Positions 50,726-56,481 of a stretch of 64,000 nucleotides of DNA are shown one piece after another. The stretch is taken from positions 64,001-128,000 of the IMG/VR virus record IMGVR_UViG_3300013830_000002; one strand, given 5' to 3'. This stretch comes from a virus. Lineage: Duplodnaviria; Caudoviricetes. A program made the position numbers and the translations under genes. Below the pieces are notes generated by a model that saw only the letters and a list, made by a program, of their open reading frames with translations, was not told the origin of the DNA and ran no database searches. Numbering within the stretch: position 1 is the first letter of the stretch; each line of letters opens with the position of its first letter.

Positions 50726-53700
50726 TCAATAAGCGGTTTCTGTACTATAAAGTAAGAACGACTTATAAGGATTAGTTACTGCAATAGATGCATAGCCCTG
50801 TGCAGTAATTGCACCACCTGCTACTAATGTAGCAACATCCCCGTCTTCAATTCCAACCCCTCGTAAGGTATTGAATATAAAGTCTTTACCCTTAAGAGTA
50901 AATAGGTTAATGGCAGGATTGCCATTAGTTTTACCTGCTGTTAAGTCGATGCACATAGCAAACGGCATTGGATATTCTCTTGTAAGAGTTCTATCAGCAG
51001 TAAAAACTATAGTATTTCCCAAATTTATGTTAATCTAAGTATTTCTACCTAGTTCAGACTATATCTTTATCTTTAAATTTAAAAACAAATCCTTTATGTG
51101 AGTGAATAATATTTCTGAGAACCCTATTTATCTAAGATACATTTAATTCAGGATGCTGTTTTTTACAGTCCTGAGCATTATCATACTCTCCTATTTTGTT
51201 TCCCTTTTTGTCATACATAACAATTTGTTTATAAGGAATTTTTAGAGGGCCACCAATATAAGGCTCAATATCAGAATCATTACCAGTGTATCTTCTCCAC
51301 TAATAGCCAGCTGCTAGACAGTGCTTCATAACTGCCTAATTAATAGTGCATACTTGCATAGCTAAATCAGCTTCTTCTATACTATTAAAAGTTCTTAAAA
51401 ATTTTCCACTTAAAGTATACTGTGCTACAGGAGTAATATTTCTATTTTTATATCCTGGAAATTTATTATTTCTAGACCAGATATAATCACAAGCGGATGA
51501 TGTTCTTCCTGCACAATTATTTTTTATAGCCTATTTAACACTTTCATAATTGTCGGCATTAATAGAATGAGCAGCTATTCCTATTGAAGGATAGGCAGAA
51601 ACAAACTTTCCTTCTTTTGTATACTGGTAAACTGTGTGCATATATTCAGGATTAACTCCTCCTTGACCTCCTACACTTGTATTATAGCACTATTTGCTTC
51701 TAAGTACTGTAGGAGTCACAAGCTCTGCTTCTAATTGATAGGCCTGTTTCTTTCCTTCTTCTGTGTGAGGAAATATCCTAAGTGTAGTACGCTTAAATTT
51801 ATCATATCCATATTTCCTAACAGCAGAATGAAATGCAAACTTTTTATTGGCATTACTTAATCTATATACCCCGCATCCTATATAACCATCAAACACATCT
51901 GGATTTGTTTCATGTACACCTATGTAGAATTTACCATTACATAAGTTTATTGTTATATAAACAATATATTTCAATTCCATAAGATAATTACCATTTCGAT
52001 TATATTAATAATCTATGCCCATAAAGGGACTTACTAGTCGTTGAACTTCACTCATACTTAAAAGCTAAGAGTTTTAGCTGCTGATTATCCAATCTCTATT
52101 ATTTTTCAGCATTATATTTAATTTCCATTAATATTTTAGCTAATAGAGCTCTAAGGAACTTCCAGCAATTAAATAATTTTTATTAAGCCACAGATTTCTC
52201 TGCGTTTCGCCAGAAATAAATTAGTTTAGCGAATTCATAAGCACTAAATGTGCTTCCAACTTTATAATATTTACCGTCTTGTTTTGAGTAAAGATAAGCA
52301 CCATCAGTCTTGAAGTCTGCAAGGTACTTAAACAGTACTCTGTTAAAGATTGCCCACATTTGTTCATTTGCCACAAAAACAAACTGGTTACCAGTAGGAG
52401 TATCAGCCTTCTGGACCATTTGAGAAATAACGGTCTGGAAAGTGTTGATAGTAATCTTACTAGCAACATATTTAGAAGCAAATCTTTCTATCTATGGAAT
52501 TAAGCCCTCCGAAATTGTTAATCTTCATATTACTACGAAGTTCAGACTATATTTTTAACTTGTATTGTTTTATCCTCTACAAGTTACTTCCTCTTTCCAC
52601 CAATTTAAATAGTGTACTCTACTCAGTTATAATTATTAGTTTTTCTCTAATAATTTCTTTTCGATAGTCGTTGAACCTTACTAACATTAGTATTGGCTGC
52701 TGATTGTCCTATAGTAGCTAAATAGGAGATTCCAGCAATTAAAGAAGTTTTATATTGGCAAGAGTTTATCCAACCAATAGGAATAGGTCTACCAGTCTGT
52801 CTATCAGAAAGTGTAGGCTTGCCGTCCCTGCCAATGTTACCTTTAGAAAGGAGCAACATTTGCTCACGAGCTTGCATGAAGTTATCAATAAGATTTTTCT
52901 TCATTGGGTCAAGCTTGTAAATGGTTTCTGTCAGACAACCTTGATTTTGACCTTGACCAATTTTAATGAGAGTATCCTCCATAAGAGCATACTTTGAACT
53001 GTATGTGTCATCACATCTGATGAGGGTCATACAGTTACGCATCTTTTCAACATTCATATTATTGCCTTATAGTTTCCTATAAGATTAGACTATATCATTA
53101 ATTTACTTTATATTTAAAAATAAATCCTTTACACTGTTGTTGTACTCCTTTTAATACCTTCTAAACTCCTCTTGTGTACTTATGTATAGTACAAGCCAAA
53201 GATGGACATTCTTCTATAAAAGTACCATCAGTTTTATAGACTAAAACTGGACGTTTAAAATACTTTAACTTTATAAGGATTCATTTTTTCTAATTTAGTT
53301 AATGAAAATTGGTATGATTTATAATTTTTATTTTTTCTGATTGACACTGTTATAGGATTAGTGCTGTTAATATTAAAAAACTTTTTAATTTCTTTTCCAT
53401 TATATAAAACAGTTAAAAATTTACCTTGTAAATCGTAAACATATAAAGGTTTATTCTTTATATGAATATGTTCAATAGGCTTATACTCTTCTACCAATTT
53501 GGAAGAAAAATAGTAGTTTTTTATTTTATATCCAGTAGACATAGCATTTCCTACACTCTAAGGAGTAACCCCAATACTAGTAGCTGCTTCCTTAATAGAA
53601 TTGTATGAAGCTACAAATTTGAGTGTAATTGCATCGTACTAAAAGCATTTTTGCTCTAGGCACGTAAATTCCTTAGTGTTAATACTTGTATCTTTAGACC

Positions 53701-56481
53701 AATAAAAATTTTTGCAGCGATTTTTATAATTAACTGCATTCCTGATAGCAGTATGTGATACACAATAAAAGTCAGCTGCTTCCTACATAGTATTCCAGGT
53801 TTTAATGTACTTACCACCAGTTGTAAATTGGTTTACAGGCAAGTATTTATAACCTGTCATACCACCTAGCTAAGCATTATATGTATCCTTCCGTTTAATA
53901 AAATTATAATCTACTAATCTTGATTCTTCTTTTAATGCTTCATCTAATGAGTCACATACTTTTAAAGTAATTCTTTTAAAATTTTTAACCCCATATTTTT
54001 TGACTGCATATTGTAAAGGAGATGAAGGATTCATATAACTACTTGGCATATTTACTTTTATTCCACATCCGAGATACTAATCAAAAACATCTGGATTTTC
54101 TGTCTTATGCTATCCAATATAAATTTTTCCATTAACTAAATTTTTTGTCAAATATATTATATATTTCATTATTTAGTAAATTAGCTTCCATTTCGATTAA
54201 TCTTTTAATCTACTCTCTCCCGAGATAGTCGTTGAACTTTTCTTGGTACTCCAGTCATAACTTTCAGTATAATCCAAGACTTAGCTGCTGATTACCATTT
54301 CACAGGTTTCCAGCAATTAAAAAGCTTGTGCTTGTAGCTTAAGCTACAAGGAGCAATGTTAGTTTACTCTGGTACTTAACGAACATTTTGTTAATCACTA
54401 TATTACTATAGTGTTCAGACTATATCTTAATTTATATAAAATAAATTCACTCTTTTTCAGCTATTACAGCTTACTCCGTAAAGGATAGTCGTTGAACATT
54501 CTAAAATAAAAATTTTAGCTTTGCTGCTGATTGTCCTAATTAGTAGCTGACTTAGGATTTCCAGCAATTTAAAGTGTTTTTATTATTGACTGAGGCAACG
54601 TTAAAAGTACCAATAAAATTTTAATATTTTCACCACAGTCATTAAGCTCCGGCTTGGCATTTCCTACCCATCGGGTAAGACCGCCAATATGGCAAGCATC
54701 CACATCAAGAACTGAGCTATAATCATCGTCAACAAGACGGACCATTACAGACCATCTATTGTCAGCTTTTCTTACAGGCGGGGCCACGACAAAGCATTGC
54801 TGGCCGGATTCCTCAATCTTGAAGATTTCATGAAGTTGGTAATAGTTCTCTGGGAATACCATTTCAATTTCAGAACCATCTGCACCATTCTCAACAGGAA
54901 CTTCTGCAAACGGAATTCTCTTGATTTGATTGGTTTCGATTTCCCCAATTTAATTGTTATCAACATGTTACCATGTTGTTCAGACTATATCATTTACTAT
55001 ACTTAAACACATAACCATTACATTCAGTAATCTAATTGATTACTTTGTTCATTTGTGTATGTGTTAATCCATACTTAACCCGGCACTCTTTAAAAGTATT
55101 AAATTCTTCAATCAAAGTGCCATTTTTGTCATAAACTTTTAGTGTGACAGGATTCAATTTTCTACTTGGCAATTCAGTAATTTGTTTTGTACTAATATAG
55201 AAATTCTTAAACCAACCGTCATTGTCATGTATGATTTTGTCCAATTTGGCAAACGAGAATACCTTTAGCTGTTTAAATATTTCTTTTCCTACAAATGTTC
55301 CGATAAATTTATATGGAATACTGTACAAAAAGAACTGACAGCTTTTTAATTGTACTCTTGGTTTTGGTTTAAATTCGTCTGTATTAATGTTTGACACATA
55401 ATGGTTGCATAGTAGTTGTTGGTTTCTGCAGGCATGACTGACTGCTTGTGGAGTACATCCTAAATATTGAGCACACTCTTTTCTTGTGCCAAATACAGCA
55501 ACCTGACTACCATCCTTTGTATAAACAAATGTTTTTTGTTTGCGATGGTTAATGTTAAAAATCTGTGGTTGTCTACTCCAGTAGAATCCAGCGTAAGTAA
55601 TACCGTCAGTAGAAGCTCTCTGTAACCTTATTAAGTTCAAACCCAGAGAATCAGCTGCCTCAACCGTACTGTTCCACGTTTTTATTAAATTACCATCGTA
55701 GTCAAATTGATTGATTGGTTTGGAATGCCAAGTTCTGTCTTGCTGGCCTTTAAAATATCCACCAAGACCTCCTACAGCTACATTATATACATGAGCTTGA
55801 CGAATAAACTATTCAGTCACAATACTCTCTTCAATGGCTGATGCCTCTTCAATAGTATCCACTATTTGAATAGTGTATCGAGTGAAAGCATTTGGCCCAT
55901 ACTTTTTAACTGCCTTTTGAAAAGGAGTTGTAGGCTGCATATATGTAGCAGGTTTTTGTGCATAGACTCCACAACCTAAATACCCGTCAAAAATTTCTGG
56001 GTCTTCGGTTTTATGGTAGCCTATATAAATTTTGTTCAGTCCATTCTTTTTGGACTTGTTGTTTACAGTTAAGTATATGATATATTTCATAGTAATCCAA
56101 TTTTTCACCATAAGGTTTAGAACGCATCTTAGTCGTTGAACATTACTCTGAACCAGAGTCGTGCTGCTGATTGTCTTGTAGTAGCATCAAGAGTTCCCAG
56201 CAATTTAAAGGATTTTTCACAGTAGCTTACACTACTGAGGAGCAGGAATTTTACTCATAGAATTCAGAGTCAATTGAAGTAAAGCTACCAAGCTTTTTCT
56301 TCTCCTGACCCATCCAAACATTACCAAGTAAGTCAGTTAATGCACTCAAAGTGTTTTGCGGATAAAGCTTAGCAAGAATACCGAGCTTATATGTTTTAGT
56401 ACCAAGGAACTTACCAAAATCCTCAACGGTACGTGTACCACCCATATTAGGGTTATTAGTTACAAAATTAGCTACTAACAT
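50726..56481 (-). CDS. Major capsid protein, 472 aa after removal of five group I introns (exons 56481-56253, 54945-54632, 54383-54366, 53054-52773, 52509-52228, 51019-50726)
   Basis: Exons sum to 1419 nt in one frame. Junctions rebuild FYE-W-EIETN, NDCG-FVKYQS-NVEKMRN, PIG-EGLIP[Q]IE and YEFA-GNTI, all crAss MCP-like motifs. Confidence 0.9.
51020..52227 (-). mobile_element. Group I intron 5 of MCP (1208 nt) with homing endonuclease
   Basis: Exon TTCGCT pairs with IGS GGCGAA, and P10 is ATTTCT/GGAAAT. CAACGACTA and GATATAGTC core elements present; ends in G. Confidence 0.9.
51054..51980 (-). CDS. GIY-YIG homing endonuclease with NUMOD1-like repeats (~308 aa; TAG=Gln)
   Basis: YIVYITINLCNGKFYIGVH...DGYIGCG. 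The C-terminus KDKDIV* is encoded by the intron core sequence AAAGATATAGTCTGA. Confidence 0.85.
52510..52772 (-). mobile_element. Group I intron 4 of MCP (263 nt, no ORF)
   Basis: Exon TATTGGT pairs with IGS GCCAATA. Core elements CAACGACTA and ATATAGTCTGAAC present; ends in G at 52510. Confidence 0.9.
53055..54365 (-). mobile_element. Group I intron 3 of MCP (1311 nt) with homing endonuclease
   Basis: Exon GAGT pairs with IGS GCTC, and P10 AACATT pairs with the next exon AATGTT. Core motifs present; ends in G. Confidence 0.9.
53255..54169 (-). CDS. GIY-YIG homing endonuclease (TAG=Gln), last NUMOD repeat frameshifted
   Basis: MKYIIYLTKNLVNGKIYIG[Q]HKTENPDVFD[Q]YLGCG, ending in TAA at 53255. 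A further repeat continues in another frame. Confidence 0.8.
54384..54631 (-). mobile_element. Group I intron 2 of MCP (248 nt, no ORF)
   Basis: Exon GACTGTGGT pairs with IGS GCCTCAGTC. Core elements CAACGACTA and AAGATATAGTCTGAAC present; ends in G at 54384. Confidence 0.9.
54946..56252 (-). mobile_element. Group I intron 1 of MCP (1307 nt) with homing endonuclease
   Basis: Splits a TGG codon (T|GG). IGS GCTC pairs with GAGT and P10 is ATTCC/GGAAAT. Core motifs present; ends in G. Confidence 0.9.
54990..56090 (-). CDS. GIY-YIG homing endonuclease with NUMOD1-like repeats (~366 aa; TAG=Gln)
   Basis: MKYIIYLTVNN...KIYIGYHKT...DGYLGCG. Fragments 55809.. and 55032.. share a frame, and the TGA overlaps the intron core ATGATATAGTC. 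Confidence 0.85.

Follow-up and report, generated by a model that had tools for sequence, protein, structure and literature searches.

A six-exon major capsid protein gene contains an 18-nt exon

The stretch of DNA analysed here (the window, 64,000 nt in full) comprises bases 64001-128000 of the 166,778-base IMG/VR record IMGVR_UViG_3300013830_000002, a viral genome of the class Caudoviricetes that is rated complete by CheckV. On its minus strand lies a gene that its homologues identify as the major capsid protein (MCP) gene, in which five predicted group I introns separate six exons (Table 1). The third of these exons, which reads TTCGTTAAGTACCAGAGT and encodes FVKYQS, lies between introns 2 and 3 and has a length of 18 nt. 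We consider it highly probable (roughly 0.85) that this micro-exon is an ordinary coding exon, made tiny by two independent mobile group I introns at sites 18 bp apart, each of which would splice by means of its own guide.

The gene was mapped by tblastn of two intron-less MCPs, L001 (MT835470) and L002 (MT835492), onto the window, followed by inspection of the junctions. Exon 2 aligns to reference residues 77-180 and ends at position 54632, and the alignment restarts at 53054 with residue 187. Six reference residues are left between exons 2 and 4, YVKYQS in L001 and YCKYQS in L002, and in the same frame the micro-exon supplies FVKYQS. Closer intron-less relatives read ...HDTG FVKYQS NVEKMRN... 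where the window reads ...NDCG FVKYQS NVEKMRN..., and the predicted spliced MCP peptide spanning the micro-exon is ...CGFVKYQSNVEK.... Among 57 distinct intron-less homologues the six positions are occupied by F, Y or W, then V (one C), K, Y, Q and S, the last four (K184, Y185, Q186 and S187) being invariant, and no homologue lacks the segment.

When the six exons are joined, they form a frame of 1419 nt with a single stop, which is terminal. All five introns have a U before the 5′ splice site and a G before the 3′ splice site, and the two 5′ splice sites flanking the micro-exon are TGTGGT/G for intron 2 and CAGAGT/A for intron 3 (the slash marks the splice site). The same 18 nt are found between the same intron ends, at 99-100% identity, in four short contigs (L204-L207) and in a metagenome contig (L202); an assembly artefact was rejected, as the layout is repeated in these five independent assemblies. 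Nucleotide conservation around the two insertion sites is above average and unexceptional, ranking 214 and 90 among 1387 windows of comparison.

Table 1. Features of the MCP gene and of its intron guides (positions in the window; ORF, open reading frame; aa, amino acid; P1 and P10, pairings of the intron guide with the 5′ and 3′ exon)
Feature	Position	Strand	Description
Whole MCP gene	50726-56481	-	six exons and five group I introns
Exon 1	56481-56253	-	
Intron 1	56252-54946	-	GIY-YIG ORF
ORF in intron 1	54990-56111		GIY-YIG; two in-frame TAG codons
Exon 2	54945-54632	-	aa 77-181; ends ...GACTGTGGT; last 9 nt in P1 with intron 2; from tblastn and P1 search
Intron 2	54631-54384	-	group I, 248 nt, no ORF, ends AAAATG; from RF00028 and homologue boundaries
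Intron 2 guide, P1 strand	54588-54596	-	GCCUCAGUC, intron nt 36-44; exon 2 partner GACUGUGGU, a single U-U mismatch
Intron 2 guide, P10 strand	54599-54611	-	UUUAACG (nt 27-33) and GGUAC (nt 21-25)
Internal UAUUGGU of intron 2	54609-54615		intron nt 17-23; GCC guide 12 nt later
Exon 3 (micro-exon)	54383-54366	-	18 nt, FVKYQS, aa 182-187
Intron 3	54365-53055	-	group I, 1311 nt, putative endonuclease ORF in peripheral loop, ends AATATG
Intron 3 guide	54351-54361	-	UAACAUU (nt 5-11) for P10; GCUC (nt 12-15) for P1
Intron 3 ORF	54169-53255	-	304 aa; GIY-YIG-like N-terminus; six in-frame TAG codons
Exon 4	53054-52773	-	aa 188-281; starts AATGTTGAAAAG
5′ exon end at intron 4	52773-52779		UAUUGGU/U
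Intron 4	52772-52510	-	no ORF
Exon 5	52509-52228	-	
Intron 5	52227-51020	-	GIY-YIG ORF
ORF in intron 5	51054-51980		GIY-YIG; five in-frame TAG codons
Exon 6	51019-50726	-	

Introns 2 and 3 are predicted to pair with separate parts of the micro-exon

Both flanking introns were compared with the Rfam group I model RF00028, whose gathering threshold is 50 bits. Intron 2 matches the full model (1-253) with 71.2 bits at 54396-54615, and intron 3 matches with 58.1 bits in its 5′ part (54149-54375) and gives a separate 29.2-bit match for the P7′-P9 part after the ORF. Moreover, both introns show the group I hallmarks, that is, a U.G wobble in P1 at the 5′ splice site, a terminal G and a P10 with the 3′ exon. 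By these features introns 2 and 3 are self-splicing introns of group I, and splicing activity is predicted for both.

The guides were located by a weighted joint search for P1 and P10, which replaced a criterion of the longest uninterrupted helix that had chosen spurious all-wobble helices. For every one of the five introns a single solution of the joint search stood out clearly from the rest. In the solution for intron 2, P1 extends over nine positions with one mismatch, and after a spacer of 2 nt the micro-exon nucleotides 3-9 (CGUUAAG) pair with UUUAACG to form a P10 of 7 bp. This P10 can be extended over a 2-nt bulge, GUACC pairing with GGUAC, and micro-exon nucleotides 3-13 are then covered, i.e. 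up to 11 of the 18. The interaction of the micro-exon with the 5′ region of intron 2 has an energy of -13.3 kcal/mol (RNAduplex), a value that only 6 of 2000 shuffled versions of the intron segment attained, and the P10 helix of intron 2 appears in the minimum free energy fold. For intron 3, the last micro-exon nucleotides GAGU (nt 15-18) pair with GCUC in P1, with the U.G wobble at the splice site, and exon 4 AAUGUUG pairs with UAACAUU in a P10 of 7 bp.

A sequence-only reading of the window had proposed an 18-nt exon between two group I introns that serves intron 2 as its 3′ exon and, at the same time, intron 3 as its P1 substrate. The first part is upheld by the homologue residues, the open spliced frame and the RF00028 matches on both sides, and the second, with the micro-exon as P10 partner of intron 2, by the joint P1 and P10 search.

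The guide pairings could also be followed in relatives that have an intron at the same sites (Table 2), site 2 being the position after aa 181 and site 3 that after aa 187. Compared with the window, P1 of L028 carries two double (compensatory) changes and keeps the U-U mismatch and the same architecture. At site 2 of L058, L068 and L086, P1 has 9 bp and P10 has 8-9 bp. The guide pairings covary with exon changes in the relatives.

Table 2. Guide pairings at sites 2 and 3 in the window and in relatives
Helix	Source	Exon strand	Guide strand
Site-2 P1	window	GACUGUGGU	GCCUCAGUC
Site-2 P1	L028	GACACUGGU	GCCUGUGUC
Site-2 P10	window	CGUUAAG	UUUAACG
Site-2 P10	L028	UGUAAAG	CUUUACA
Site-2 P10	L040	UGUAAAA	UUUUACA
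Site-3 P10	window	AAUGUUG	UAACAUU
Site-3 P10	L049, L201	AAUGUAG	UUACAUU (compensatory)

Each intron stands alone in relatives

Intron occupancy was surveyed in the best 80 of 205 MCP relatives from IMG/VR. Most of the 80 have no intron, and 13 have at least one insertion. Site 2 alone is occupied in L028, L040, L058 and L068, by introns of 991-1002 nt with a GIY-YIG protein of 238 aa, and site 3 alone is occupied in L049 and in the metagenome contigs L201 and L203. ORF-less introns also stand alone at site 2, in L130 and L146. The pair of site 2 and site 3 was seen only in the present phage lineage (the window, L202 and L204-L207), and a pattern scan of IMG/VR for this pair found nothing else.

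The ORF of intron 3 combines a GIY-YIG-like N-terminus with a following NUMOD1 DNA-binding module; NUMOD1 scores 41.1 bits, above its cut-off, and SegE_GIY-YIG 18.8 bits, below its cut-off of 25. The ORF also matches PHROG 314 ‘homing endonuclease’ (E 1e-28), and a sequence search of the endonuclease against the PDB gave no match. Over its full length intron 3 has 73.6% nucleotide identity with the site-3 intron of L049 (1332 nt), and from such relatives intron 3 would be the orthologue of the intron that stands alone at site 3 in three other contigs. Intron 2 shares the guide architecture of the site-2 family and could be an ORF-less derivative or replacement of a site-2 intron, or a recombinant. 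The distribution in relatives indicates that introns 2 and 3 are separate mobile elements with neighbouring homing sites.

Evaluation of the model and its alternatives

In the model that we prefer, the exon is tiny because introns settled after Gly181 and after Ser187, in a conserved stretch of the MCP. In intron 2, P1 would hold exon 2, and an unusually long P10, of 7 bp and extendable to 11, would hold the micro-exon. In intron 3, P1 would hold the last four micro-exon bases and the 7-bp P10 would hold exon 4. Each intron would splice independently with its own internal guide.

Several points weigh against this model. P1 of intron 3 has four exon base pairs only. The Rfam alignment sets P1 of intron 2 not at the mapped junction, but at an internal UAUUGGU/A, 23 nt inside the intron. 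Furthermore, the BLAST match of intron 2 to the site-2 intron family is confined to the last 54 nt (81-85%), whereas in its core it resembles intron 4 of this gene more closely (76%). Finally, splice junctions, splicing order and splicing efficiency at this locus are all deduced from the sequence.

The internal UAUUGGU and the spacing to its GCC guide copy the 5′ exon end and the spacing at intron 4. The motif could be the relic of an ancestor that resembled intron 4, or else a cryptic 5′ splice site. As a functional P1, or as the border of a 23-nt ‘mini-intron’, it was rejected, since the additional 23 nt would shift the frame and the homologues have no such insertion. In the joint search, P1 at the internal motif scores 19, compared with 33 for P1 at TGTGGT/.

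Of the other explanations, the one that survives best concerns mobility, and we hold it to be unlikely. It supposes that introns 2 and 3 form one mobility unit, in which the intron 3 enzyme cuts just 5′ of site 2, repair copies both introns, and intron 2 hitch-hikes. I-TevI is bound to its insertion site while it cleaves the DNA some 20-25 bp upstream, and the intron 3 enzyme has an I-TevI-like layout (a GIY-YIG-like N-terminal domain, then NUMOD1). Such a unit would suit an intron 2 that has no ORF where site-2 introns of relatives carry the gene for the 238-aa GIY-YIG protein, and between samples the block from intron 2 through the micro-exon to intron 3 shows 99% identity. In L187, likewise, an ORF-less first intron and an endonuclease-bearing second intron are paired around an exon of 33 nt. 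However, the upstream cleavage position of the intron 3 enzyme is assumed by analogy with I-TevI, ORF-less site-2 introns do occur alone (L130 and L146), both introns occur singly in relatives, and the IMG/VR pattern scan found no second genetic background with the pair. The sequence-only reading had likewise suggested co-conversion or collaborative homing of the two introns, for which the relatives examined offer no backing, as the introns occur there singly and never paired outside this lineage. Since each of the two introns is found alone in relatives, with its own GIY-YIG gene, linked or collaborative homing is not needed to explain either of them. Such homing might account for the spread of the ORF-less intron 2 at this locus. 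A further speculation, by analogy and in our opinion quite improbable, is that intron 2, with no endonuclease of its own, owes its spread solely to the intron 3 enzyme, which would cut upstream of both sites so that the pair homes as a cassette, and that the long P10 of intron 2 evolved to hold the tiny exon and to suppress skipping.

From the double role of the exon the sequence-only reading had deduced ordered splicing or possible exon skipping. An obligatory order does not follow from the guides, which use separate bases of the micro-exon, nucleotides 3-9 (or up to 13) for P10 of intron 2 and 15-18 for P1 of intron 3. As the adjacent helices share no bases, the sequence forces no order, and either intron could in principle go first. 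Intron 2 probably splices first, co-transcriptionally, because all of its 248 nt have been transcribed when the 3′ half of the intron 3 core, situated beyond the ORF, is still about 1.1 kb away.

The same reading had pointed out that skipping of the 18 nt would be in frame, which is correct, and a second explanation would give such skipping a use: the free 3′ end of exon 2, set free in the first splicing step of intron 2, attacks the 3′ splice site of intron 3, and the product, an MCP isoform that stays in frame and is devoid of FVKYQS, serves a separate function. The first 10 nt of exon 4 can indeed pair with the intron 2 guide UUUUAACGUU, which adjoins the P1 strand, at -7.5 kcal/mol (-5.8 kcal/mol for the first 9 nt, a value equalled by 83 of 2000 shuffles), and skipping has been reported for a phage Twort gene with three introns (summarised in PMC3073962). 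Nevertheless, the cognate P10 is much stronger at -13.3 kcal/mol, K, Y, Q and S are invariant in the 57 homologues with none lacking the segment, and relatives with one intron cannot skip, yet keep the same protein. A useful isoform without the hexapeptide is unlikely, since it would lose the invariant K-Y-Q-S that all homologues keep, and we rate the use of skipping as a whole as very improbable.

That the 18 nt are no exon, with intron 2, the 18 nt and intron 3 forming one composite or nested intron, or with the gene as a decaying pseudogene, might be suggested by gene callers seeing fragments only and by the misplacement of the intron 2 P1 by Rfam, and has in our view almost no chance of being right, given that the 18 nt provide, in frame, six residues that all homologues have, that each intron occurs alone at exactly these sites, and that the six exons are intact in a locus conserved at 99-100% across several samples.

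Micro-exons in other phages and in known systems

In IMG/VR, at least 117 stretches have the 3′ core of one intron and, within the next 80-110 nt, the 5′ core of another. At least 52 of 89 pattern matches have further core motifs on both flanks. Among the matches listed, about 20 tandem-intron loci that were fetched are crAss-like MCP genes. In the same region of the MCP, exons of 32 nt encoding (F)TKYQSNIEKH are present in L116, L118, L131, L198 and L085, and exons of 33 nt in L086, L176 and L187. The tandem-intron layout recurs in many phages and is not very unusual.

One of the contigs that share the micro-exon, L202 (REGX01021666.1), is 99% identical over window positions 53026-54497 and beyond, and has, 41 nt into exon 4, one more group I intron, which contains a GIY-YIG ORF. 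The 5′ splice site of this intron follows ...ATCCGTGT, and its P1 is formed by GUGU and GCAC. That strain consequently has consecutive exons of 18 and 41 nt. The 12 exon bases next to the extra intron show only synonymous changes relative to the window, and this stretch looks like a co-conversion tract.

Across the MCP family (L003-L082 and L085-L198) there are at least 10 insertion sites, near aa 28, 76, 181, 187, 192, 201, about 250, 271-283, 375 and 413, with several tandem intron pairs, and aa 181-201 form an insertion hot spot. In L086 and L130, Rfam detects further intron pairs at another MCP site, separated by 13-17 nt. Tandem intron junctions that are nearly identical occur in many jumbo-phage contigs (200-380 kb; among the IMG/VR loci L083-L199), where the exons apparently measure roughly 10-20 nt, and one repeated tandem junction is common to L088, L109, L115, L123 and L139.

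Intron-split MCP genes of crAss-like phages have already been published: a crAss-like MCP ORF is split in five by group I introns with endonuclease domains (Yutin et al. 2021, PMC7886860). The present phage resembles the Zeta/Delta crAss-like phages of that paper, which as described there include a 145-192 kb class with recoded TAG, many group I introns and an intron-split MCP. Introns were found there through protein domains and ORF fragments, and the available text of that paper does not describe exons too short for ORF fragments, guide pairing or site-by-site occupancy. In the literature searched, no published description of micro-exons in phage MCP genes was found.

Two other systems are comparable. 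Exon skipping by group I introns has been reported for the phage Twort three-intron gene (Landthaler and Shub 1999, summarised in PMC3073962); as in that summary, the window has a phage structural gene interrupted by several related group I introns, from which an internal exon could mechanistically be skipped. In placozoan mitochondrial cox1, a micro-exon of 1 nt lies between two group IB introns and has RNA-seq support (PMC5436844); here too a very short exon would result from the insertion of a second group I intron beside a first, both with cores of their own. In Twort, skipped transcripts were observed according to the summary, and the placozoan exon is a 1-nt organellar one supported by RNA-seq, whereas the present exon is an 18-nt phage exon at a locus known from sequence alone. 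The tandem introns in IMG/VR share the arrangement of a 3′ core within about 100 nt of the next 5′ core. Unlike the other tandem-intron loci, the present locus has both sites traceable singly in relatives, and the extended P10 predicted for the upstream intron takes up the greater part of the exon.

ORF-based callers cannot see exons of 18-41 nt, so that the annotation of intron-rich crAss-like MCP genes breaks them into fragments or omits six or more residues. P1/P10 guide pairing, combined with intron-less homologues, recovers such exons exactly. The locus is also a compact natural test bed for two ribozymes that share a very short exon, and for neighbouring homing sites that interfere with or help each other.

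The capsid gene and the recoded phage genome

The MCP assignment was examined with intron-less homologues. Individual window exons are too short to score, and the Pfam family PF23898 Crass_capsid (Crassvirus major capsid protein) was instead tested on the closest intron-less homologue, L003, which is 67% identical to the spliced window MCP and scores 37.2 bits (cut-off 27). L001, which also has no introns, gives a match to a ‘major head protein’ family of PHROG. A sequence search of the PDB with the MCP gave chance-level matches only. An AlphaFold model of a homologous MCP has a mean predicted local distance difference test score (pLDDT) of 59, with residues 172-194 below 50.

In the record as a whole the group I intron model is matched at least 11 times. 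Many frames become open when TAG is read as Gln, one of them an ORF of 680 aa with 11 TAG codons. No tRNA gene, hence no suppressor tRNA, is present within the window. In genome length (166.8 kb), TAG recoding and intron load this gut crAss-like phage agrees with the Zeta/Delta type described by Yutin et al. 2021. In-frame TAG codons are present in each of the three GIY-YIG or GIY-YIG-like ORFs that the introns carry (Table 1), so that the endonucleases would be makeable only if TAG is read as Gln. In L187 the micro-exon has TAG at the codon for the otherwise invariant Gln of the KYQS motif, which lends independent support to TAG as Gln in this phage group.

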